From an uncultured Candidatus Saccharibacteria bacterium (GTDB lineage: Bacteria; Patescibacteriota; Minisyncoccia; Phycocordibacterales; PALSA-1337), in assembly GCA_964646515.1 (NCBI GenBank), contig CAZYES010000001.1, forward strand, positions 7,582 to 71,581: DNA of 64,000 nt, written 5' to 3'. The notes under the pieces are model-generated. The model searched no databases and was not told where the DNA came from. It was given only the letters and a program-made list of their open reading frames with translations. Both the position numbers and the translations under genes were made by a program. Shown here piece after piece: positions 10,558-64,000 of the stretch. How positions within the stretch are numbered: the first letter of the stretch is position 1; the number at the start of each line of letters is the position of its first letter.

Positions 10558-11301
10558 ATGAGAAAAAATCCTAGGATAATAATTTTTACAGATGGGTCTT
10601 CACGCGGTAATCCCGGTCCAGGAGGATGGGCCAGTGTTATAGTGACGGGTGTTTTGCCAAAAATAGAGAGTAGAAAAGCCACAGTGACAGAAATAGGTGG
10701 CGCAGAAAAGATGACGACAAATAATAGGATGGAACTTGTGGCGGCAATGCAAGGCATTTCACATACGCCACAAGGTTCAGAAGTAACCGTTTACACGGAT
10801 TCGTCATATTTGATCAATGGTATGACGAAATGGATCAAGAATTGGAAAAGAAATGGTTGGGTTACCAAGACCAAAGGTGATGTGTTGAATAAAGATATAT
10901 GGATAACGCTTGATCGATATGTTAACGAGAGAAGTATCAGTTGGAAATATGTTGGTGGGCACATTGGTATTGTGGGCAATGAAAGATGTGATCATATAGC
11001 CACTAGTTTTGCTGATGGTATAAAAATAGAATTATATAGGGGTTTTCTTTCTGGGTATGATTTGCCCAATATCGTGAATATATCGGAAGACGACAAAAAA
11101 GTTATGATAAAGGAAAACAAATCTTCTCGCTCGAGATTGAAAGCTTATTCATATGTGAGTTTGGTCAATGGCATCATCAAAATTGATCATTCTTGGGCGG
11201 AGTGTGAAAGACGCGTCAAGGGAGTCGGGGGCGCAAGATATAAAAAAGCGACAGATGCTAGTGACGAAGCTAAAATTATCGAGGGATTCAGTATGGCGTA
11301 A
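10558..11301 (+). CDS. rnhA: Ribonuclease HI with a C-terminal hybrid-binding-like domain
   Basis: N-terminal RNase H fold with DEDD candidates (FTDGSS, NNRMEL, YTDSSY, NERCDHIA). The C-terminal ~50 aa (AYSYVSLVNGIIKIDHSWAECERRVKGVGGARYKKATDASDEAKIIEGF) resembles the RNase H1 N-terminal hybrid-binding domain. Confidence 0.8.
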   Translation: MRKNPRIIIFTDGSSRGNPGPGGWASVIVTGVLPKIESRKATVTEIGGAEKMTTNNRMELVAAMQGISHTPQGSEVTVYTDSSYLINGMTKWIKNWKRNGWVTKTKGDVLNKDIWITLDRYVNERSISWKYVGGHIGIVGNERCDHIATSFADGIKIELYRGFLSGYDLPNIVNISEDDKKVMIKENKSSRSRLKAYSYVSLVNGIIKIDHSWAECERRVKGVGGARYKKATDASDEAKIIEGFSMA

Positions 11302-11413
11302 ATATGGTCGTAGAGTATGGTCGGGAGATTTCATCTGGATTTGATTTTTTATTTATCAAGATTTTAATCTTTTTTTATTGGGATTTTATCTAAGATGAGT
11401 ACGATTAACTCTC

Positions 11414-12841
11414 ATGAAGAGAGGGGTTTTTGTTTTTTGGAGTATTCTCGTTGCGGTCGCGCTTTTGCGTTTGTGGCAATCTTTCGATGTAAAGGCACCA
11501 GATCTTGGTATATGTGTGGGACAAAACGTCAATGGCACCGGTATAGTTTACGAGGAACCAGAACGCAAAGAAACAGGGCAGATCTTTATGGTGTCTGTCC
11601 ACAGATTGTCTGTTGCTAGCACCTCGGCTGGATGTCGTGGTGATTTTCTTATTCGTCTGAAGACCAAGTTGTATCCTAGGTTTGTTTATGGTGACCTAAT
11701 TGAGTTTAGTGGAAGACTTTCTTTGCCGATTAATTTTGGCGGTGCCACCGGAAGAACTTTTGATTACAAAGGGTATCTGGCCAAAGATGGTGTTTTCTAT
11801 GAAATCAAGAGTGCCACGGTCTCTACCGTAATAACGGGGTCGTCAACCCCCGAAAAGAACGTTGCAAATGATGGAGATTTAATTAAAGGTTTACATGCTA
11901 GTGACAATGGCGCAATTGGTTGGCTAGCTCCTACTCTTTATTCTCTAAAGAGAAACTTTGTAAAAAATTTAGAGAAGATTCTCGGTGAACCTCATGCCGC
12001 TTTGGCTTCTGGACTTGTTGTCGGAGAGAAAGCCGCTCTGGGTAAAGATTTACTGGATGATTTTCGAATAGTCGGGCTTATTCATATCGTCGTTTTATCT
12101 GGTTATAACATCACTATCGTCGGCGATGCCATGAGACGTGCTCTTTCGTTTTTCCCTAGGATCTGGGGAATTGGTCTGGGTGGTATAGGTATTGCTTTGT
12201 TTGGTGTCATGGTCGGCGGAGGCGCAACAGTGGTTCGTTCATGTCTTATGGCCGGCATTGCTTTGTCGGCAGATCTCATTCGCCGCGAATATAACGTTAT
12301 GCGTGCCCTTATTTTTGCGGGATTGGCCATGATAGTCCAAAATCCCATGATTCTTTTGCATGATCCTTCTTTTCAGTTATCATTTTTAGCTACAATAGGA
12401 CTTATATTACTTGCTGGTCCCATTGAGAGGCACCTAAGGTTTGTCCCAAAAAGATTTGGTCTACGTGGCATTGTTGCCTCTACCCTGGCCACACAGGTTT
12501 TTGTCTCTCCTTATATCTTGTACATGATGGGCCAGTTTTCAGTTATCGGGGTAGTCGTCAATATCTTGGTACTACCATTTGTTCCTATGACGATGTTTTT
12601 CGTTTTTGTAGCCGGAGTGGTTGGTTTTATATCGCTTTCTTTTGCACAAGTTTTCGGTTGGATTGCATACTCGTTGCTTTCATACGAATTATTTGTAGTA
12701 CGTCATTTTGCGCAGATGCCATTTGCTTCAGTCCATTTGCCATTATTTTCTGGTTGGTTAGTAGTTGGATTTTATAGCATGTTTTTTCTTATCTTATTAT
12801 TTGTCGCATGGAGAAGGAGAGTGCATGTAATATCACTATGA
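11414..12841 (+). CDS. comEC: ComEC/Rec2 DNA internalisation channel (OB/DUF4131 plus competence membrane domain; no MBL domain)
   Basis: 475 aa with an N-terminal TM, an OB-like region and multiple TM helices typical of the Competence domain. Confidence 0.8.
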   Translation: MKRGVFVFWSILVAVALLRLWQSFDVKAPDLGICVGQNVNGTGIVYEEPERKETGQIFMVSVHRLSVASTSAGCRGDFLIRLKTKLYPRFVYGDLIEFSGRLSLPINFGGATGRTFDYKGYLAKDGVFYEIKSATVSTVITGSSTPEKNVANDGDLIKGLHASDNGAIGWLAPTLYSLKRNFVKNLEKILGEPHAALASGLVVGEKAALGKDLLDDFRIVGLIHIVVLSGYNITIVGDAMRRALSFFPRIWGIGLGGIGIALFGVMVGGGATVVRSCLMAGIALSADLIRREYNVMRALIFAGLAMIVQNPMILLHDPSFQLSFLATIGLILLAGPIERHLRFVPKRFGLRGIVASTLATQVFVSPYILYMMGQFSVIGVVVNILVLPFVPMTMFFVFVAGVVGFISLSFAQVFGWIAYSLLSYELFVVRHFAQMPFASVHLPLFSGWLVVGFYSMFFLILLFVAWRRRVHVISL

Positions 12842-13824
12842 GGATCGTGGCCAAAACATTTATCATAACTTTGATTGTAATTGTGGCTACATTTATTTTT
12901 GGTCTTTATATATGGCGCGATGAACATCGCCCATCTATTCTGGAAATTTATGTCTTTCCTATGAAAAGTGGGCGTTCTATGTTCGTGCGTACGCCAGATG
13001 ATGTGAGAGTACTGATCGATGGTGGCTCAAATTCGGAAATCGTGCGTAAAATTACCGAAATATTACCTTTTTATTCAAGACGGATTGACATTGTGATTGC
13101 TACGAATGGTGACGGCAAAAATGTGTCGGGGCTGATCGATGTCGTAGATCGATATAAAGTTGGTCATGTATATATTCCGGCGGTAACGCTTCAATCTCTG
13201 GGCATAGCAAGCTCGACTGATCAGATCTATGGTACATTTGAAAGTGATCTTGTCAACAAGGGCATTGCGACTACCAAATTGTTGGCTGGCGATACCATAG
13301 ATCTTGATTCCAGAACAAATATTCGCATTCTATTTCCATTTAAGGACAATCAATTTGTTTATTCCAAGGCCAGTGCGCCAGAGTTGCTATTTGAAATAAT
13401 GATTGGTAATAATTTTTTGACATTTCTCGGTAATGCTTCAAATAAAATACAGAAGGCTATCGCTTCTTCAACTTTTTCCTCGTTTGTTTCTTTGGAAACT
13501 TCGTCGGCAGTAAAATCGATTCATCAGTCTCGCGTTCTAGTCCTTTCCCATAGCGCTTTACCGGCAAATATGTCGCCACAGCTTATGGGTAAAATACGGC
13601 CAGAATATTTGGTTTATTCAAGAGTAATAAGTCGTACGGTGACATCATCGCCCAGTAAATCATCAGCTCCTGTGACGAGTTCATCTAGCAGTGCTCGAAA
13701 GAAAAAAATGGTTATCGATCCGCTTGTCTCTGTTACAAATGAAAAGAGATTTAACTTAAAAGAAGGGAGAACAGTGAAAGTTGTTCTTGATGAGAAAGAT
13801 ATCAAAGTTATCGATCAACTTTAG
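12838..13824 (+). CDS. ComEC C-terminal metallo-beta-lactamase-like domain protein, metal ligands degenerate
   Basis: ORF 12808..13824. ATG 12838 overlaps the comEC TGA (ATGA). N-terminal TM, then ILEIYVFPMKSGRSMFVRTPDDVRVLIDGG and IDIVIATNGDGKNVSGL where ComEC MBL domains carry DVGQGD and THxHxDHxGG. Confidence 0.65.
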   Translation: MRIVAKTFIITLIVIVATFIFGLYIWRDEHRPSILEIYVFPMKSGRSMFVRTPDDVRVLIDGGSNSEIVRKITEILPFYSRRIDIVIATNGDGKNVSGLIDVVDRYKVGHVYIPAVTLQSLGIASSTDQIYGTFESDLVNKGIATTKLLAGDTIDLDSRTNIRILFPFKDNQFVYSKASAPELLFEIMIGNNFLTFLGNASNKIQKAIASSTFSSFVSLETSSAVKSIHQSRVLVLSHSALPANMSPQLMGKIRPEYLVYSRVISRTVTSSPSKSSAPVTSSSSSARKKKMVIDPLVSVTNEKRFNLKEGRTVKVVLDEKDIKVIDQL

Positions 13825-13844
13825 TTTTGCCCTATCCGTGTTTG

Positions 13845-14087
13845 CTAGATCAATCCAGCTTTTTTCAAGGTTTTGAGTGCGCCGTTTTTTTGGATTGTGC
13901 GCAGAGCTCTCGTAGACACATTCAAGACTATAGTTTTTTTCAGTTCGGGAACATAGATGCGCTTTTTTTGCAGGTTTGGGTACTTTCTAATTGTGCCACA
14001 AGGATTGAATTGTGTGGCACGAGTACGGTTCGAGTAGCGACCGCCTACGACCGATTTCTTCTGAGTTATAGCGCATATTTTTGCCAT
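13845..14087 (-). CDS. rpmB: 50S ribosomal protein L28
   Basis: 80 aa; MAKICAITQKKSVVGGRYSNRTRATQ is typical of L28. Confidence 0.9.
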   Translation of the reverse strand: MAKICAITQKKSVVGGRYSNRTRATQFNPCGTIRKYPNLQKKRIYVPELKKTIVLNVSTRALRTIQKNGALKTLKKAGLI

Positions 14088-14174
14088 GGTAGTATTGAGA
14101 AACTATGCTATCATAAATCGTCCCCTTAAATCAAGTGACAGGTTTCGAGGAGGGATGATCATAAGTGCCAAAAC

Positions 14175-14780
14175 ATGTTGCAGGTTTTATCTATAGTTAT
14201 TCTTATATTGTCAGTTATCATCCACGAAGTTTCCCACGGCTATATGGCTGATGTCTTGGGCGATCCTACGGCCAGACTGCAGGGTAGATTGACTCTGAAT
14301 CCAATAAAGCATATGGATCCGGTGGGTTCTGTGCTTATTCCACTGCTTACTACTTTTTTGGCCGGTTTTACTTTTGGCTGGGCGAAACCAGTTGTTTACA
14401 ATCCATATAATTTGAGAAATAAGAGGCAGGGAGAGTTTCTCATAGCTATCGCTGGTCCGTTTTCGAACCTATTACTCGCTTTAATTTTTGGGATGATTAT
14501 GCGGTTTACTATTGGTCCAGCGGGTATTATTACACCGTTTATAGAGATTGTCTCGTATATCGTTATTATCAATATAATTTTAGCGATCTTCAATTTGATT
14601 CCACTGCCGCCACTTGACGGCTCGAAACTTTTTTTGGCTTTTTTGCCAAATCAGTATGGCCAAATCCGTGTGGCTCTAGAAAGATACGGGTCAATTTTTG
14701 TTATCATCGCAGTACTTTTTCTCTGGCAATTGGTTGTGCCTATAGTGCCTTTCATCTTTAATTTATTCACTGGCTTATAA
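14175..14780 (+). CDS. Site-2 protease family (peptidase M50-like) membrane metalloprotease
   Basis: HEVSHG (HExxH) in the first TM region; polytopic membrane protein; LNLIPLPPLDG motif. Confidence 0.8.
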   Translation: MLQVLSIVILILSVIIHEVSHGYMADVLGDPTARLQGRLTLNPIKHMDPVGSVLIPLLTTFLAGFTFGWAKPVVYNPYNLRNKRQGEFLIAIAGPFSNLLLALIFGMIMRFTIGPAGIITPFIEIVSYIVIINIILAIFNLIPLPPLDGSKLFLAFLPNQYGQIRVALERYGSIFVIIAVLFLWQLVVPIVPFIFNLFTGL

Positions 14781-14837
14781 ATATGTAGCGGTAGTTTTTG
14801 TTGTTTTGTGCCATATGCGGTGGACCAGTACACAGAG

Positions 14838-14866
14838 TTGACAATTTTTTGCGTATATGTAAGGAT
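14838..14866 (+). promoter_or_regulatory. Candidate promoter for the structured RNA (perfect -35 TTGACA, weak -10)
   Basis: TTGACA 14838-14843, 17-nt spacer ending in TGT, then AAGGAT 14861-14866. Confidence 0.35.
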
Positions 14867-14872
14867 TGACTA

Positions 14873-15298
14873 CAGATTAGTCTTGTCTGGGTGTTGTCGT
14901 GGTGTCGATGATGTTTCCGCGACGTTGGCATTATTGGCAACATCCAGACCAAATTTAGGGCTTGCCTAGAACCCCATTCGCAGTTTTCCTCTGCTCGTGT
15001 GTTTGCTTCGATTGGTAGTTTGGCCAAGTCCATGGTGCCCCGACCGTCTTTCGTTGGCGTTTCAGCGGTCGGTGGCACCATTTACTCTTCCTGTTCTTTT
15101 ATTTTTATCACAGCGGTTGCTTTTGTCCTTTTGAGCCGTCTGTGATCAGGGTTGCCAGTGTTCCCCCCCCCCCCTCCCACAAACACTGGCACCCTGTCTC
15201 TTAGTCACCGTAAATGGGTTTATCGGACCTTTCTCCTTGTGTTCAATGCCCATTTGCCGTGGCACGCGCCGCAATCTTTCGTAGGTTGCGGCGTTTTT
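14873..15298 (+). ncRNA. Unclassified structured RNA candidate (strand tentative)
   Basis: GC-rich non-coding gap between the M50 protease and rpsL. Three long near-perfect hairpins at 15032-15081, 15107-15146 and 15147-15196. Two further helices contain G-U pairs on the + strand that become A-C mismatches on the - strand. Bounded by a promoter-like site and the terminator at 15267-15300. Confidence 0.5.
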
Positions 15299-15300
15299 CT
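15267..15300 (+). terminator. Intrinsic terminator
   Basis: 8-bp GC-rich stem CGCCGCAA / TTGCGGCG with an 11-nt loop, followed by TTTTTCTT. Confidence 0.7.
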
Positions 15301-15444
15301 TGCATAAAAAATCATTGCATGCTAAGTTGTTGTAATTACCCTTATAAGCAGGGTTTATTAAATAAATTTAGGCAATAATGAGTAATCGTCACAAGCAGTC
15401 CTTTTGGAGACGACTAAAGCTTGTGTGGTGAAGAATTTCAGTTT

Positions 15445-15864
15445 ATGCCAACGATCAATCAACTTACGAGATCTTATCGAAAGCGTTTCAAACAGAAATC
15501 CAAGTCTGTAGCCTTGACTCGTACCTTCAATACTATAAAAAATCGTCCAACCTTTTTTCCGGCACCGTTTAAGAGAGGTGTATGTACAAAAGTTACTACA
15601 AAAACTCCAAAGAAGCCCAACTCTGCCATTAGGAAGATTGCTCGCGTGAGGCTCACTAACGGGATGGAAGTTACGGCCTATATTCCTGGCGAAGGACACA
15701 ATTTGCAAGAGCATGCTGTGGTATTGCTTCGTGGCGGCCGTGTTAAGGATGTAGGTTTACGGTATTCCATTGTGCGTGGTGTTTTGGATTGTGCCGGAGT
15801 GGAGAAGCGTCGCAAAGGTCGTAGTCAGTATGGTAACAAGAAGCCAAAGACGGCCACAGCTTAA
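15445..15864 (+). CDS. rpsL: 30S ribosomal protein S12
   Basis: MPTINQL N-terminus, KKPNSA(I)RK motif. ORF track begins at an upstream TTG (15421). Confidence 0.95.
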
Positions 15865-15948
15865 TTGATTTTAAATATACTAGGAAAAACTTTAGGCAAC
15901 ATAAACTATTTTGGCAAAATTCAAAATAAATTATCATAAGCAAATACC

Positions 15949-16419
15949 ATGCGAAGAAAATTAAACATAAAGAGGGAATTGAGACCGGATGTAACATATA
16001 ATTCTCTTAAATTATCTAAGTTCACGAATTATATTATGCAATCTGGCAAAAAAAATATCGCCAGAAAGATTGTTGTTGATTGCATGAATGAAATCAAAGA
16101 GAAAGCCAAGGTCGAAAACCCTTTGGAAATATTTGAGTCGGCCCTGAAAAACACGACTCCATCTATGGAGGTAAGATCACGCCGAGTCGGCGGGGCCAAC
16201 TATCAGGTTCCACGAGAAGTTCGTCCAGAGCGCAAGCAAGCTTTGTCTATGAAGTGGATTATTGAGGCAGCGCGTAATAAGAAAGGCAAGCCTATTCATA
16301 TTAAGTTGGCAGAGGAGATCATCTCCGCCTCAAAGAACGAAGGTGAAGCAATCAAAAAACGTGAAAATGTACACAAAATGGCCGAGGCCAATAAAGCGTT
16401 TGCGCACTTTGCTTGGTAA
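15949..16419 (+). CDS. rpsG: 30S ribosomal protein S7
   Basis: 156 aa; conserved VGGANYQVP and C-terminal AFAHFAW-type motif; follows rpsL. Confidence 0.95.
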
Positions 16420-16478
16420 TAAGTCGTCTTTTATTATTAGGGAGTAATTGAGTGTTTGTATATTAACATTAAATATTT

Positions 16479-18623
16479 ATGAAACGTGACTACCCGTTAG
16501 AACAAGTAAGAAACTTTGGAATTATTGCTCATATCGACGCTGGTAAGACGACTACATCGGAACGTATCTTGTACTATACGGGTATGACCCATAAAATTGG
16601 GGAAGTTCACGAAGGTGAGACGGTCACTGATTGGATGGAGCAAGAAAGGGAGCGCGGTATTACGATCACAGCGGCTGCCATTACTTGTTTTTGGAATCCA
16701 ACATACATGCCACCGACAGACGTTTCCAAAAAAGTGCGTTTCAATATTATTGATACCCCAGGACACATCGACTTTACTGTTGAAGTGAAGCGTTCTCTTC
16801 GAGTTCTCGATGGGGCAGTTGTGGTATTCGATGGTGTGGCGGGTGTTGAACCACAGTCCGAGACCAATTGGAGGTATGCCGATGACGAAAAAGTCCCACG
16901 GCTTTGTTTTATCAACAAAATGGACCGTATAGGCGCTTCTTTTGATAAGTCGTTCAAATCGATTCTAGAAAGACTCAACAAAAAAGCAGTTAGATTTCAG
17001 ATTCCTATTGGCTTGGAGGGGGGTCATGTTGGCGTTGTCGATCTGATGCGTATGAAAGCTTATTATTTTGAGGGTGAATTGGGTAACAAAATTATTGAAA
17101 AAGACATTCCCGCGGAATTATTAGAAGATGCAAAGAAATATCACGCAGAAATGGTTGAGAAGATTGTCGAACATGACGACCTAGCTATGCAGAAGTATTT
17201 AGAGGGGCAAGAAATCACCATTGGTGAACTCAAGGCAATTACCAGAAAAGCGGTTATCAATAATGACATGTTTCCTGTCTTTACCGGCTCTGCTTTGAAA
17301 AATGTTGGTGTGCAATTGGTTTTGGATGCGGTCGTTGATTATCTGCCATCTCCTCTGGATATTCCTCCAGTAAAGGGAATAAATCCGGAAACCGGCGAAG
17401 AAGTTGTTCGTCACGCTTCCGATGATGAGCCTTTTTGCGCTTTGGCTTTCAAGTTGCAGAATGATCCATTTGTCGGGGCTTTGACTTTCTTTAGGGTCTA
17501 TTCAGGAACTATAGAAGCTGGTACCTACATTTACAATGTCTCTACAGGCAAGAGAGAACGTCTAGGGCGCATGGTGCGCTTGCAGGCAGATCAGAGGGAA
17601 GAAGTCAAAAAAGTTTTTGCCGGAGAGATTGCTGCCGCCGTTGGACTCAAAGACGCGTTAACTTCAAACACTTTTTGTGATGAAAAAAACCCGATTGTAC
17701 TCGAGATTATCAAGTTTATGGAGCCTGTTATTTCACTTAGGATTGAGCCAAAGACCAAGGCCGATCAAGAAAAAATGGGTTTGGCGCTACGCAAGTTGAG
17801 CAACGAAGATCCGACATTCAAGATTTCTTCCAACCAAGAGACGGGCGAGACTATTGTTTCCGGAATGGGCGAGCTTCATCTGGAGATTATGGTTGATCGC
17901 ATGAAGCGTGAATTTAGTGTAGAGGCCAATGTCGGCGAACCGCAGGTAGCATATCGAGAAACTATCCTTGGTAGTGCCGAAGCCGAGCATAAATATATCA
18001 AGCAGACTGGCGGTAAGGGTCAGTATGGCCATGTAAGGTTGAACTTGAAACCTATGGAACCGTGGCCAGAGGGCGAAAAAATACCAAAGACCGTTCATCG
18101 TTATGATGATTTTGAATTTATGAACTCTATAAAAGGTGGCGTTATCCCCAATGAATTTATTCCTGCGGTAGAAAAGGGTGTTCATGAAGCCATGGGCCGT
18201 GGCATTGTTGCTGGTTACAAAATGGTCAACATTTCTTGTGAATTGACATTTGGTTCTTATCACGATGTTGACTCTTCGGAGATAGCTTACAAGATTGCTG
18301 CTTCACAAGCTTTTCAAGATGCCGCCAAGCGCGCCAAGCCAGTTATTTTGGAGCCCATAATGAAATTAGAGGTTGTCGCCCCGGAAAAATATATGGGTGA
18401 TATCAATGGCTCCATTGCTTCCAAGCGTGGTCAGATAGAGGGTAGCCAACCAAAAGGTCAAGCCATTTCTATTATTGCCAAAGTACCTTTGGCGGAAATG
18501 TTCGGTTATACCACTCAACTTCGTTCTATGACCTCCGGACAAGGAAGTGCCATGATGGAATTTGATCACTATGAAGTCGTACCAGCTAATGTGGCGGAGG
18601 AGATTGTGGAGAAAAGAAAGTAG
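16479..18623 (+). CDS. fusA: Elongation factor G
   Basis: 714 aa; GTPase motifs AHIDAGKTT, DTPGH, NKMD; str-operon position. Confidence 0.95.
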   Translation: MKRDYPLEQVRNFGIIAHIDAGKTTTSERILYYTGMTHKIGEVHEGETVTDWMEQERERGITITAAAITCFWNPTYMPPTDVSKKVRFNIIDTPGHIDFTVEVKRSLRVLDGAVVVFDGVAGVEPQSETNWRYADDEKVPRLCFINKMDRIGASFDKSFKSILERLNKKAVRFQIPIGLEGGHVGVVDLMRMKAYYFEGELGNKIIEKDIPAELLEDAKKYHAEMVEKIVEHDDLAMQKYLEGQEITIGELKAITRKAVINNDMFPVFTGSALKNVGVQLVLDAVVDYLPSPLDIPPVKGINPETGEEVVRHASDDEPFCALAFKLQNDPFVGALTFFRVYSGTIEAGTYIYNVSTGKRERLGRMVRLQADQREEVKKVFAGEIAAAVGLKDALTSNTFCDEKNPIVLEIIKFMEPVISLRIEPKTKADQEKMGLALRKLSNEDPTFKISSNQETGETIVSGMGELHLEIMVDRMKREFSVEANVGEPQVAYRETILGSAEAEHKYIKQTGGKGQYGHVRLNLKPMEPWPEGEKIPKTVHRYDDFEFMNSIKGGVIPNEFIPAVEKGVHEAMGRGIVAGYKMVNISCELTFGSYHDVDSSEIAYKIAASQAFQDAAKRAKPVILEPIMKLEVVAPEKYMGDINGSIASKRGQIEGSQPKGQAISIIAKVPLAEMFGYTTQLRSMTSGQGSAMMEFDHYEVVPANVAEEIVEKRK

Positions 18624-18677
18624 TAGACCAATCAAAATGGCGTCCGTGTATGTGTTATAATTCTAGATGTTAATTCT

Positions 18678-18800
18678 ATGAGATCACGAAATGTCACATA
18701 TATTATATATGTAGTGTTGTTGCTAATCTTGGCTCTAATGACTTTTTCACTTCCGGGCATGAATACGATACTTTCGGGTAAGGTTCTCGGTGCTTACTAG
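18678..18800 (+). CDS. Candidate 40-aa single-pass membrane peptide
   Basis: ATG..TAG ORF absent from the track (<60 aa): MRSRNVTYIIYVVLLLILALMTFSLPGMNTILSGKVLGAY. Basic N-terminus followed by a hydrophobic helix. Confidence 0.25.
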   Translation: MRSRNVTYIIYVVLLLILALMTFSLPGMNTILSGKVLGAY

Positions 18801-18810
18801 ATTTGTAGCC

Positions 18811-18819
18811 TGTGGATAA
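18811..18819 (-). promoter_or_regulatory. Perfect DnaA-box sequence (TTATCCACA on the minus strand)
   Basis: Plus strand reads TGTGGATAA. Intergenic, 25 nt upstream of the extended -10 box TGATACAAT (18844-18852). Confidence 0.4.
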
Positions 18820-18974
18820 CTTGCTTTTTATATATTTCTAACGTGATACAATTACTTGGCTATCCAAGATATGATCTCTCCGGAGACGTATCTTTTCTGT
18901 TTATTATAGATTCAGTATTATTAAATTTCATGAGCACCTAGTTGTTGGTGTTCATGAGCTAACTTGCAACAAAA

Positions 18975-20426
18975 ATGAAATTAGACAAATCTTTTTTTGG
19001 AAAGGAATTCAAGTATATTCTCATTCTTACTATTTTGGCCTGGATGGTTTATTCATTGCCACAAGTCAAGGAGTCTATGAGTAGACCGGTTGTTAGCGAT
19101 CCTGCCACAAGCAGTGTGGCGGCAGTAGGAGCGACTTCTGTGGCAACATGCCCCGGGGGATATATCTGTATACCTATTTCTCGGGCCAATAGTTATTGTC
19201 CAGCAGGATATACATGTACTCAAACGGCGACTACTTCACAGCCGTATATTAGTCTGAACGCTTCCTCGACCAATATCGGTCTAGGCCAATCTACAGTCGT
19301 ATTTTGGTCTACGAACAATGTGACCAATTGTGTCGGCACACAGGATGGCGGTGACGAGAAAGTGCCAGCCATATTCAGTGCTCCAGCCACAAGGGGCTCA
19401 TTTACTGTTACTCCATCACAAAGTGTCACTTATACATTGGCATGTTCTTTTGGGACAGTAGGTAAGATGTCAAAGAGTGTGACCATAAATGTGGGGCAAT
19501 ATCAATCATCTTGGCCAAGTTCTATTTCTGCGACTATAAATAGTGCGACTCCACTCAAGGGTCTTGTTCAAATATCAGAAACAGTGCCTACTTCCAATGT
19601 GTCATTGATGGTCTTCAATTTGAAATCGACGAACGGAACATCAACGCTTCGACAGATTAAGCTAAGTGTACAGATGAGCACATCTTCTCCCGATGCACGT
19701 TTATTTAACAACATGAAACTTAAGGCAGGTGGCAATATTTACTCGGCATTTTATATATATGAGCATAATAATATTGCAGATGTTGTATTCTCTGATATGT
19801 CAATAACATTGCCAAGCAATGCCACTGTCGCATTTATCTTAACTGCCGACATAGCTGCGGATTTACAGCGCAGGTTTGACGGTGTTGGTATTCGTGCGTA
19901 TCTTCAAGCAGATAAATCAAGTATATATGCCGAATATGGTGCTCGACAGTTACCAGTAAATATGGCGAATATTACAGGGAATACTCTTACACTTGTTAGT
20001 AATTCTCCTATCGTTAGTAATTTGTCGACCTTGTATGGCGTTCCCACTACTAACGGATATGGCTCTACTACCCAAAAATTTTCTTTCCGCTTTGCGATCA
20101 CGGCTAATGCAGATCCGATCTATTTGTCGAGATCATTGAATAGCGCTATTAGTACTTCAACTGTGCCCAATCCTAGTAATATATTTATTTCCCCTATCAG
20201 CTTTTCTGATACTGATGCGAGTGGCGATGGCCCAGGATATTTATATATTGCTCCTGGCCAAACGAAGACCTTCACTGCTATCTACTCAGGTTCTGGTCAG
20301 AGTTCAGCAGTTGGTACGTTCAACGTAAGTGCTATCAACTACGGAACGTCATCAGATGCTCTTACCTCGGCATCTATAACTTCGTCGCAGATCACCAACG
20401 GATTAAAAGCAGTCTTGTTTCATTAG
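18975..20426 (+). CDS. Secreted or anchored hypothetical protein with paired CPxGYxC motifs and beta-sandwich-like repeats
   Basis: 483 aa; N-terminal hydrophobic segment; CPGGYICIP and CPAGYTCT motifs. Architecture resembles the ORF at 62234. Confidence 0.75.
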   Translation: MKLDKSFFGKEFKYILILTILAWMVYSLPQVKESMSRPVVSDPATSSVAAVGATSVATCPGGYICIPISRANSYCPAGYTCTQTATTSQPYISLNASSTNIGLGQSTVVFWSTNNVTNCVGTQDGGDEKVPAIFSAPATRGSFTVTPSQSVTYTLACSFGTVGKMSKSVTINVGQYQSSWPSSISATINSATPLKGLVQISETVPTSNVSLMVFNLKSTNGTSTLRQIKLSVQMSTSSPDARLFNNMKLKAGGNIYSAFYIYEHNNIADVVFSDMSITLPSNATVAFILTADIAADLQRRFDGVGIRAYLQADKSSIYAEYGARQLPVNMANITGNTLTLVSNSPIVSNLSTLYGVPTTNGYGSTTQKFSFRFAITANADPIYLSRSLNSAISTSTVPNPSNIFISPISFSDTDASGDGPGYLYIAPGQTKTFTAIYSGSGQSSAVGTFNVSAINYGTSSDALTSASITSSQITNGLKAVLFH

Positions 20427-61657: not shown

Positions 61658-61853
61658 TGCCTCGCTCGATGTTTGGCCACCCATAATTTGGAGTAAGGAT
61701 ATGGGAAAAATGTAGGGAATTGACTTTTGGGTCTTTTTACACTAATATGGCTCTGTTAGTGGCTGTTGTCGGAAAATCTTAATTTTATGGATTTTTTAAC
61801 GGATTACCCCTTAATTTTACGTTTAATAATTTTGTGAATTTAACAATATGTGG

Positions 61854-61862
61854 TTATCCACA
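61854..61862 (+). promoter_or_regulatory. Perfect DnaA-box sequence TTATCCACA
   Basis: Exact 9-mer in the 570-bp intergenic region. A 1-mismatch box TTAGCCACA lies at 62094-62102. Confidence 0.4.
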
Positions 61863-62233
61863 AGTTCTTTTGCTTTACATCCCGTAGATGAGATATAATG
61901 TTTTGTAACGAGTGTGCAATCAGGTCGTCTAGTATTGCATACTTGTCCCAGAGCAGTAGTGCTTAGGGAAAATTTCTCTGCTTTGCTCCTAGAGTTTGAG
62001 TAGAGAAAAAGTCCGCTTTAGTTTTTAATAAAAAGTTAGAGCGTGACAAGTCGAACTTTGACAACTTAATAATATGTCACAAGTTCGTTTAGATTAGCCA
62101 CAAACTCTTTTTACTTTGCGTGTCGATAGCGCATTTTGTAAAAAGAAGTGGATTATTAGTTAGTTTATAAATCGCATTAACTTCTCCCTCATTATTAATA
62201 ATCGGAGAAGGTGCGTTAATTATTAAATCAAAA

Positions 62234-64000
62234 ATGAAAAAGTTTCTTATTGCATCTGGCGTTACTTTCTTAGCTTTCGCCACGATCGTAGGAGCACAGA
62301 CTCAGACCTTCAATTCCAACTTGACTGTTGGTTCGACAGGTTCCGAGGTTGTTGCTCTTCAGGAAGTTCTCTTGAATGCAGGATACGATATTCCGGCTCT
62401 TAGCAGTGGTACGGCTACCAAAGGTTATTTTGGTTCACAAACCAAATCAGCCGTTATGAAGTACCAAGCCGAAAACGGTATTCCTAACACAGGTTTCGTA
62501 GGTCCTCTTACTAGAGCAGCTTTGAATGCTGGTGGTCCAGTAGCTGGTGGTTCAGTAGTTTGCCCAGCGGGCTTCGATTGTACCCCGAACACCCCAGTAG
62601 TTGTTAATTGCCCAGTTGGATATACATGTATACCTAAGGGCAGTACAGTTCCTCCAGTTACCACAATAGGTGCTGAAGGTGTAATGACTACCAAGTTGGC
62701 CTCATCTCCTATTGCAGATTCGAACATAGTTATTTCGTCAAATGTTCCTGTGTATGGAATTGATGTCAAGGCACAAGGATCAGATATGGTCGTTGACCGC
62801 GTTCTTCTTCAGATGTCAGTCGGTGTGGGTACTGAAACTGGTAGCCCTAGCAACCCGGCTACTTTTGTGAGAACACTTTATGCTTATGATGGTTCTACTC
62901 TTTTGAAGAGTTGGAATCTTTCGCCTGCTGACTTCAACAAAGATTCATCCGATCGTTACTATGTAATAGCTTCAGGTATGCGTTTTGTTGTTCCTAAGGA
63001 CACAACCAAGACACTCACCTTTGCTGTTGACACCAGTGGTGTAGCGGCAGATATGAGTTCTCGTTATCTCAGAATTCAAGGTTATGCAGGAAACACCCAG
63101 AACGTACGTGCAGTTGATGGTGCCGGCTTGAGCAATTACACAGATATGTCTGGAACCAGCAATAGTCGTTTGCAAGTTTTTGCCACATCTGGCAACTCAA
63201 CGGTAACAGCTACGGTAAATTCAGCTCTTTCGCCAAAGTCCACAAATAACAAAGTTGACTCTACGGATGGTGTAAAGGAGCTAACTATGCAAGCTTTTGA
63301 TCTCAAGTCAACAACTGGTGCTTCAAAGGTCACAAAGATCTGTGCTTCAGCTGCTGCTACAACGACAGACAATCTTCCAACAACTTTGTATCTTTATGAT
63401 GGTTCATCTAGACTCGCTTCTGTTTCTGCATCAGCCAGTATTGGTGGGGTGGCCTGCTTTACTGACCTGACCATAAACATTGCGAAAGATGCCACCAAGA
63501 CGCTTTTGTTGAAAGCTGATTTTCCAAAAACAGTTCTTAACGCTTCGGCTTCAACTACGATCATAGCAAGTGGTGTAGTTTGGGAGAAACCAGATAGCAC
63601 TACTGCATCTAGTACTCCTTCTGCAGCTATTGCTAGTAACAATCAACGCTTTTACTCAGCGGCCCCTCAATGGAAGCTGGTTAGCGCGACTGCTGTAGCA
63701 AATGGCGCTGGATATAGTGGAGCAACTAGCTCGGTTACTGCCACCATGGTGTTAAGCGCAAAGGCTGTTGGTGGTGCTATGACAAAACCGGTTTTGACAG
63801 ACTTCGATATGGTCTTCGCTTCTAGTACGGTTGCCAATGGTGGTTATGTGGATGGTACTACCAGTATTGCTACTACTCCAGGAATTCAGGTCAGTCCTTC
63901 TGATGCCACGATCGGAGAGGATGGTACTTACACGGTCACATTGACTGGTACATTGTATTCAAACAGTGTTTCTGCAAGTGCTCCGTACTTCATGGCTGTT
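62234..64000 (+). CDS. Secreted peptidoglycan-binding-domain protein with CPxG[FY]xC motifs and repeated beta-sandwich-like modules (3' partial, runs off the window)
   Basis: Open frame from ATG 62234 to the window end (589 codons), absent from the ORF track. Signal peptide MKKFLIASGVTFLAFATIVGA; PG_binding_1-like GSTGSEVVALQEVLLNAGY...GYFGSQTKSAVMKYQAENGIPNTGFVG; CPAGFDCTP and CPVGYTCIP motifs. Confidence 0.8.
   Translation, partial: MKKFLIASGVTFLAFATIVGAQTQTFNSNLTVGSTGSEVVALQEVLLNAGYDIPALSSGTATKGYFGSQTKSAVMKYQAENGIPNTGFVGPLTRAALNAGGPVAGGSVVCPAGFDCTPNTPVVVNCPVGYTCIPKGSTVPPVTTIGAEGVMTTKLASSPIADSNIVISSNVPVYGIDVKAQGSDMVVDRVLLQMSVGVGTETGSPSNPATFVRTLYAYDGSTLLKSWNLSPADFNKDSSDRYYVIASGMRFVVPKDTTKTLTFAVDTSGVAADMSSRYLRIQGYAGNTQNVRAVDGAGLSNYTDMSGTSNSRLQVFATSGNSTVTATVNSALSPKSTNNKVDSTDGVKELTMQAFDLKSTTGASKVTKICASAAATTTDNLPTTLYLYDGSSRLASVSASASIGGVACFTDLTINIAKDATKTLLLKADFPKTVLNASASTTIIASGVVWEKPDSTTASSTPSAAIASNNQRFYSAAPQWKLVSATAVANGAGYSGATSSVTATMVLSAKAVGGAMTKPVLTDFDMVFASSTVANGGYVDGTTSIATTPGIQVSPSDATIGEDGTYTVTLTGTLYSNSVSASAPYFMAV

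Follow-up and report, generated by a model that had tools for sequence, protein, structure and literature searches.

A strongly structured, non-coding element between an M50 protease gene and rpsL in an uncultured Saccharibacteria bacterium, tentatively read as a 3'-UTR-type RNA

Bacterial intergenic regions harbor several kinds of structured element with which a newly found one may be compared. Structured RNAs can be embedded in 3' untranslated regions (3' UTRs), and some 3' UTRs give rise to small RNAs (sRNAs), such as CpxQ and SroC. Stable palindromic hairpins at the 3' ends of genes are also known as DNA repeats, namely repetitive extragenic palindromes (REP), bacterial interspersed mosaic elements (BIME) and miniature inverted-repeat transposable elements (MITEs); clusters of the REP/BIME type can stabilise upstream mRNA and insulate transcription units. 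A third point of comparison is the type-A RNA of RNase P (RF00010), a large structured RNA with divergent forms in the Candidate Phyla Radiation (CPR). Here we analyze an element of about 430 nt in a 64,000-nt stretch of DNA (contig CAZYES010000001.1, positions 7,582 to 71,581; hereafter the window, in whose coordinates all positions are given) from an uncultured Candidatus Saccharibacteria bacterium. The element lies between the gene of an M50 protease (site-2 protease) and rpsL, a gene of the str operon. To judge by the names under which homologs of this protease are listed, the genome is a Patescibacteria (CPR) genome of the Paceibacteria / 'Taylorbacteria' type. It is real, strongly structured and non-coding, and it stands outside the known RNA families. 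Our preferred interpretation, to which we give a rough probability of 0.45, is that of a lineage-specific structured 3'-UTR or sRNA-like element, read on the + strand between the M50 stop codon and a terminator.

The interval from the M50 stop codon (14780) to the ATG of rpsL (15445) measures 664 nt and holds no credible open reading frame (ORF); the structured element, likewise ORF-free, covers 14866-15300. An antisense ORF of 104 codons has no Pfam match, and a search of 5.8 billion proteins returned no homolog of its product other than itself. The initial annotation had taken the gap to be non-coding and more GC-rich than its surroundings, and both statements hold, the GC content being 0.51-0.53 over 14900-15300, whereas the window as a whole has 0.416. 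Four assemblies of one species carry the element without any difference other than in a poly-C tract (15163-15174), which counts 12, 11 or 10 nt depending on the assembly, and within which one Logan contig breaks off. These length differences may reflect hypervariability or an assembly or sequencing artefact; because of them, a reading frame running across the tract would be shifted.

The structure of the element far exceeds chance. On the + strand, the minimum free energy (MFE) of 14870-15300 is -175 kcal/mol, compared with -118 +/- 4.9 for dinucleotide shuffles (z = -11.5), while the - strand reaches z = -5.7. The + strand folds into a chain of seven stem-loops, at the center of which stand three hairpins, 40-50 nt long and near-perfect: each has a single bulged U, and each loop measures 19 nt. 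From the M50 stop codon to the terminator, the parts are as follows.

14781-14837, + strand: spacer after the M50 stop codon, holding a degenerate copy (14787-14817) of segment 15112-15142 of hairpin D
14838-14843, + strand: perfect -35-like hexamer TTGACA, seen in the sequence
14868-14882, + strand: small 5-bp hairpin GACUA/UAGUC, present in the MFE folds of both strands
14885-14949, + strand: long hairpin A, 26 bp including 8 G-U pairs
14958-15031, + strand: irregular hairpin B, with closing helices GGGCUUG/CAAGUCC and CUAGA/UUUGG
15032-15081, strand-symmetric: hairpin C, 15-16 bp (8+7/8), one bulged U (+) or A (-), 19-nt loop
15082-15106, + strand: pyrimidine-rich linker of 25 nt, UUACUCUUCCUGUUCUUUUAUUUUU, unpaired in the folds of both strands
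15107-15146, strand-symmetric: hairpin D, 7+3(5) bp, one bulged U (+), 19-nt loop
15147-15196, strand-symmetric: hairpin E, 6+9 bp, one bulged U (+), 19-nt loop containing the poly-C tract 15163-15174
15204-15263, + strand: hairpin F, 15 bp in two segments, 3 G-U pairs
15266-15300, + strand: intrinsic terminator, 12-bp stem (7 G-C, 2 G-U), 5-nt loop, then UUUUUCUU

The structural elements proposed in the initial annotation are thus recovered: its three long hairpins all fold where it placed them, with one bulge each, its two 5' helices are present, and its terminator is found as a stem at 15266-15294 followed by a T-run. The two 5' helices, GUCUGGGUG/CAUCCAGAC and GUCGUGG/CCGCGAC, fuse on the + strand into the single 26-bp hairpin A. 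Hairpin E adjoins hairpin D with no linker at all. The 64-kb window contains no comparable hairpin cluster and no second copy. Within the element, on the other hand, several parts resemble each other. Segment 15112-15142, which spans the end of the 5' arm, the loop and the start of the 3' arm of hairpin D, recurs at 14787-14817 as a 31-nt direct repeat with 77% identity; hairpin C is related to hairpin D in its loop and to hairpin E in its 5' arm. These three likenesses suggest that the element grew as a hairpin module was duplicated.

Several observations bear on the strand from which an RNA would be read. The + fold comprises 135 bp with 22 G-U pairs and the - fold 117 bp with 6. The asymmetry resides in the flanks (14870-15000 and 15200-15300), which are structured almost solely on the + strand, whereas the three central hairpins are strand-symmetric; hairpin C, for instance, has no G-U pair in the - fold and a single one, at the loop end, in the + fold. 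The DNA of hairpin A yields on the - strand merely a three-way junction with A.C mismatches, and its sub-region scores z = -4.2 on the + strand against -0.9 on the - strand; for 15200-15300 the values are -7.4 and -2.5. Hairpin B is overlapped by an alternative - strand hairpin at 14956-14976 with 2 G-U pairs. Applied as a control to Escherichia coli rnpB, the z-score test chose the true sense strand (sense -3.4, antisense -0.9). The + strand is therefore favoured by the G-U asymmetry, by a z-score about twice as good, and by the only strong terminator, which lies at its 3' side. The G-U pairs had already been put forward as a sign of + strand transcription, and the counts and the terminator agree with that proposal.

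The borders of the element are sharply drawn. The hairpin at 15266-15294, a G+C-rich stem-loop followed by a U-run (TTTTTCTT comes next on the + strand), is the strongest terminator in the 8.5 kb from 11000 to 19500, and it faces the + strand. It is also the first + strand terminator past the M50 stop codon, none being found before 15259. One relative, L035, carries after its M50 gene a similar stem, GCGCCGCA(G/A)U...UGCGGC, with a U-run. Immediately downstream, the likely rpsL promoter TTGCAT-N17-TAAGTT (15300-15328, + strand) abuts the terminator of the upstream unit, and the rpsL promoter of another relative, L005, shows the same two hexamers at the same 17-nt spacing around a different spacer sequence. 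The initial annotation's placement of the terminator just before a putative rpsL promoter is borne out by this adjacency and by the recurrence of the hexamers and their spacing. As L005 shares them, the element ends exactly where conserved sequence begins; it would thus occupy exactly the space between the M50 stop codon and an apparently ancestral terminator. At the upstream border, the perfect -35 hexamer TTGACA noticed at 14838 is indeed there; an independent promoter is not supported, since no acceptable -10 is found 16-18 nt downstream (AAGGAT/TAAGGA) and a promoter scan does not call the site. The element thus sits where a 3' UTR would, after a stop codon and up to the first terminator of that strand, and no strong promoter is found inside it.

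No described RNA family accounts for this structure. The initial annotation had recommended an Rfam search on both strands, and its result leaves the element unclassified: at the gathering score, no Rfam 15 family matches anywhere in the window, which contains no tRNA gene either, and sub-searches of the element at E<=10 (14700-15500, 801 nt, and 14940-15265, 326 nt, both strands) gave chance matches only. ARAGORN reported no tmRNA, and neither ARAGORN (for tmRNA) nor the Rfam models detected a tmRNA, a signal recognition particle (SRP) RNA or a 6S RNA. The element thus belongs to no described family; being an orphan, it is not to be called a new family, and we file it as a structured 3'-UTR-type element.

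The proposal that homologous intergenic regions could be collected from related genomes did not work out. We compared synteny at ten loci from relatives with 71-75% identity in M50 (L005-L008 and L031-L036): the element is absent from all of them, and none of their M50-rpsL intervals shows any similarity to it. M50 and rpsL stay neighbours in these relatives, and the interval behaves as a variable cargo slot. It contains, depending on the relative, a helix-turn-helix (HTH) gene, three small genes, a 74-aa ORF together with another ORF, or almost nothing; AdoMet_dc and tRNA_bind genes and small ORFs with no assigned function also occur there, and in L031 and L032 rpsL is divergent from M50. A structured analogue is seen in the gap of L035 only, where it overlies the plausible 74-aa ORF and the terminator. 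Broader searches were equally negative. A pattern scan of a genome collection gave 9 chance matches, with no Patescibacteria and no RNase P among them, and one of metagenome contigs gave 12 chance matches, though neither retrieved the element's own species; scans of viral contigs gave chance matches or nothing, and blastn against phages and plasmids found no match to the element.

The interpretation that we prefer would combine these observations as follows. A species-specific insert of about 430 nt would be read on the + strand within the M50 transcription unit, either forming the 3' UTR of the M50 mRNA or giving a 3'-UTR-type sRNA that shares its terminator. It would act at the RNA level, its likeliest roles being to hinder 3'-to-5' decay and to insulate the str operon promoter from the M50 unit. 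Less probably, it could be a regulatory RNA that uses its C-rich and pyrimidine-rich loops to pair with sequences rich in purines, like the Shine-Dalgarno sequence. Like the 3'-UTR-derived sRNAs CpxQ and SroC, the element lies between a stop codon and the terminator of the same gene, on the same strand, and it lacks a strong promoter. It differs from them in being far longer and more structured (seven stem-loops over 430 nt) and in its restriction to one species; moreover no processing site, chaperone site or target was identified.

Several points weigh against a 3'-UTR or sRNA-like role. With no homologs, there is no sign of purifying selection on the structure. A crude duplex screen against the start regions of 60 window genes made no target stand out. 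The three central hairpins, virtually free of G-U pairs and mismatches, would suit a palindrome at the DNA level equally well, and the excess of G-U pairs on the + strand may stem in part from the T-rich composition of that strand. Finally, the preferred interpretation leaves unexplained the A-rich linkers and GAAA-containing loops of the minus strand, as well as a weak, top-ranked collinear similarity of that strand to RNase P RNA, discussed below.

Among the alternatives, the one that survives best dispenses with a dedicated RNA function: the element would be a recent insertion, or a locally amplified cluster of palindromes, in a variable slot, for instance a mobile or foreign remnant or the product of template-switch duplications, tolerated there and forming hairpins only as by-products. 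We regard this as possible but doubtful. The strand symmetry of the central hairpins speaks for it, as do a GC content 10 points above that of the genome, cargo that differs in each relative, the signs of internal duplication, a hypervariable homopolymer in one loop, and the failure of the pattern scans, of blastn against phages and plasmids and of the antisense-ORF protein search to find a homolog. Against it, the element lacks terminal inverted repeats and a target-site duplication, has no second copy in the 64 kb and matches no phage or plasmid. The flanking helices (14885-14949 and 15204-15294), moreover, form well on the + strand only, where they include 13 G-U pairs, which argues for pairing at the RNA level. 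Patescibacteria genomes are compact, and 480 nt of neutral DNA would be unexpected in one of them. The element resembles REP/BIME clusters and MITEs as a stable, intergenic cluster of palindromic hairpins at the 3' end of a gene, but it is single-copy in 64 kb, lacks terminal inverted repeats and a family of related copies, and has longer hairpins with 19-nt loops. A MITE or REP-type repeat can be discarded on these grounds, there being no other copy in the 64 kb and no terminal inverted repeats.

A more ambitious alternative, which we consider unlikely, is that the element functions as a large structured RNA, restricted to its lineage and belonging to a class not yet described, or that it is a minus-strand RNase P RNA with re-wired core helices. 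In either case the CPR would have yielded a new kind of large non-coding RNA. To our knowledge, the non-coding repertoire of Patescibacteria is almost unexplored; should the element prove to be a functional RNA, it would be among very few large structured RNAs known from this group, and would show how duplicated hairpin modules can give rise, rapidly and at the level of a species, to a structured RNA of 430 nt. Its practical value is limited by the lack of homologs for covariation analysis and by the uncultured state of the organism.

An independent non-coding RNA of an undescribed class could also be read from the minus strand, from about 15255 to 14950, ending at a weak terminator-like hairpin (14976-14956). 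That hairpin includes two G-U pairs valid on the minus strand only and is followed by a short U-run, the strand displays A-rich linkers and several loops containing GAAA, and its folding score (z = -5.7) is significant by itself. This proposal is improbable all the same: taken as a whole, the + strand gives a much better fold, the minus strand shows nothing resembling a promoter around 15260-15340, the best terminator points in the other direction, and no homologs were found.

The last alternative, and one that we hold to be very improbable, is that the minus strand, from about 15260 to 14870, encodes a bacterial RNase P RNA (rnpB) so divergent that Rfam misses it. The idea deserves attention because CPR RNase P RNAs are known to score under the Rfam cut-offs: Lui et al. 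2021 (PMC8172020) report such sub-threshold RNAs for 10 out of 35 complete CPR genomes. Like type-A RNase P RNA, divergent CPR forms included, the element is about 390 nt long on this strand and GC-rich in an AT-rich genome, and it is single-copy, as would fit rnpB. The short strings noticed on the minus strand in the initial annotation are there, in the order given: they resemble CR-I, J5/7-P7-P8, J11/12, P12'-J12/13-P13, P11'/P10' and J2/4, which is the correct order for RNase P RNA. We compared the element with the RF00010 consensus and structure obtained from E. coli rnpB, and with 13 further type-A RNase P RNAs from IMG/VR contigs. Several IMG/VR viral contigs (L040, L064 and L065) break off within a gene for type-A RNase P RNA or disrupt it, which suggests prophage integration into rnpB in their hosts. 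A gap-tolerant, global collinear alignment to 11 full-length type-A RNAs gave a mean z of 3.8, against z of about 0 for the controls (reversed targets, the plus strand, and 32 other window segments), and in a scan for collinear similarity the element ranked first among 592 window segments. The initial impression of RNase P was thus not imaginary, in that a weak collinear similarity to type-A RNA appears to exist on the minus strand.

The margin of this first rank is small. After refinement, the element scores 2.1-2.8 and the next-best window segments 2.0 and 1.8. In the collinear alignment test, one segment of E. coli rRNA reaches 2.6. The noise level of the statistic is illustrated by the segment that ranks second in the crude scan, in the gap after fusA (18491-18962, + strand). 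This ORF-free gap of 339 nt has a moderately stable + fold (z = -3.6 at 18774-18962). Against the RF00010 consensus sequence, the element reaches no significant similarity (z = 0.6).

Model-based searches for RNase P RNA were uniformly negative. Neither RF00010 nor RF00011 matched at the gathering score or at E<=10, thresholds outside which matches of 5-20 bits, as used for CPR by Lui et al., would fall. An nhmmer profile of 14 RNase P RNAs found nothing in the element, even at E<=1000. A custom covariance model of the S-domain found nothing in the part of the element that should contain it. A second custom model, of type-A RNA (303 positions, 69 bp), returned only trivial matches of a hairpin as P1, at no more than 7.5 bits and best on the + strand, whereas four RNase P RNAs outside its training set scored 235-259 bits; nor did this model yield a global fold P1-P2-P5-P7-P13-P15-P18 alignable to type-A RNAs. 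Among 185,579 species representatives, not one Patescibacteria genome contains the CR-I-like motif paired with the P7/P8-like one.

The secondary structure is equally discouraging. Canonical P4 pairs the CR-I strand (AAAGUCC...) with a 3' strand just before P1' (..CCGGCUUA), leaving one bulged nucleotide. The CR-I-like string GGAGAAAGG, whose complement CCUUUCUCCUUG lies in the interior of hairpin F, has no partner at the canonical 3' position; hand threading gives at best 4 bp, at the CR-V-like site, and when all partners are enumerated the sole 7-bp one (15032-15026) sits in the middle of the molecule. At the level of primary sequence, the CR-I and CR-V comparisons give 9/11 identities for GAGAAAGGUCC vs GAGGAAAGUCC and 9/15 for ACAACACCCAGACAA vs ACAGAACCCGGCUUA, neither detected by the 14-RNA nhmmer profile. 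Two further strings occur in the wrong structural context: the J11/12-like one falls in the loop and 3' arm of a 10-bp hairpin (15107-15146), and the CR-V-like one is locked into a 9-bp local helix in the 14885-14949 region. Threading by hand produced only weak candidates for P1, P2, P4, P7 and P12, which compete with far stronger non-canonical helices. A P1-P2-P3-P4 topology like that of RNase P can be drawn with equal imagination on the + strand, for which reason such threading proves little. The test of stability, finally, picks the other strand (z = -11.5 for plus, -5.7 for minus). Unlike type-A RNase P RNA, then, the element has no model match, no canonical P4 and no P5, P9 or P14, its dominant helices are incompatible with the P10-P12 and P2/P4 topology, and its preferred strand is the opposite one. 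With three Rfam scans, the nhmmer profile and both custom covariance models negative and no canonical P4, the divergent RNase P RNA envisaged in the initial annotation finds no confirmation. The locus should not be annotated as rnpB; that a likeness at the level of short strings failed model-based tests is a useful negative.

Three other candidates can be set aside briefly: a pseudogene of the cargo proteins of relatives, given a negative tblastn; a fragment or mimic of rRNA, given no significant similarity of the element to E. coli 16S or 23S rRNA; and antisense pairing to the rpsL start, for which a perfect 9-nt complement exists (14923-14931 with 15445-15453), but with rpsL ranking only about 14th of 60 in the duplex screen.

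Two regions toward the end of the window are recorded in passing. An ORF-free gap at 61658-62424 contains on the + strand, at 61808-62157, a stable fold (z = -4.3 to -6.2) with a GC content of 0.34-0.36 and no Rfam match. The final 1.2 kb or so (62809-64000) has no frame of 100 codons or more, a GC content of 0.45, no marked structure and no Rfam match.

A conserved leader precedes rpsL, downstream of the element (15366-15444, + strand, core 15381-15432). Its general form is AGGCAAKAAUGAGUAAUCG, a variable hairpin, then GGUGAAGAAUUCA; the core in the window reads AGUAAUCG, variable hairpin, GGUGAA. The leader has no Rfam match. In the relatives it lies at the following positions.

L005, 1027-1067: rpsL leader
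L008, 3725-3777: rpsL leader
L033, 4663-4701: rpsL leader
L035, 4255-4292: rpsL leader

The pattern AGTAATCR-N12-42-GGTGAA occurs once in the window, where 0.05 occurrences are expected, and once upstream of rpsL in each relative that keeps rpsL downstream of M50, which leaves out L031 and L032. E. coli 16S rRNA has a single occurrence as well, in helix 43 (about 1345-1374; L037 4010-4039), and 57 other loci have none. The motifs that flank the variable hairpin are the same as those around helix 43 of E. coli 16S rRNA, and the hairpin between them shows compensatory changes. From these sequence features, the leader looks like a candidate rRNA mimic through which the str operon would regulate itself. 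If the analogy with E. coli holds, S7 would be the protein that binds it. This leader may prove a more tractable lead than the element itself.

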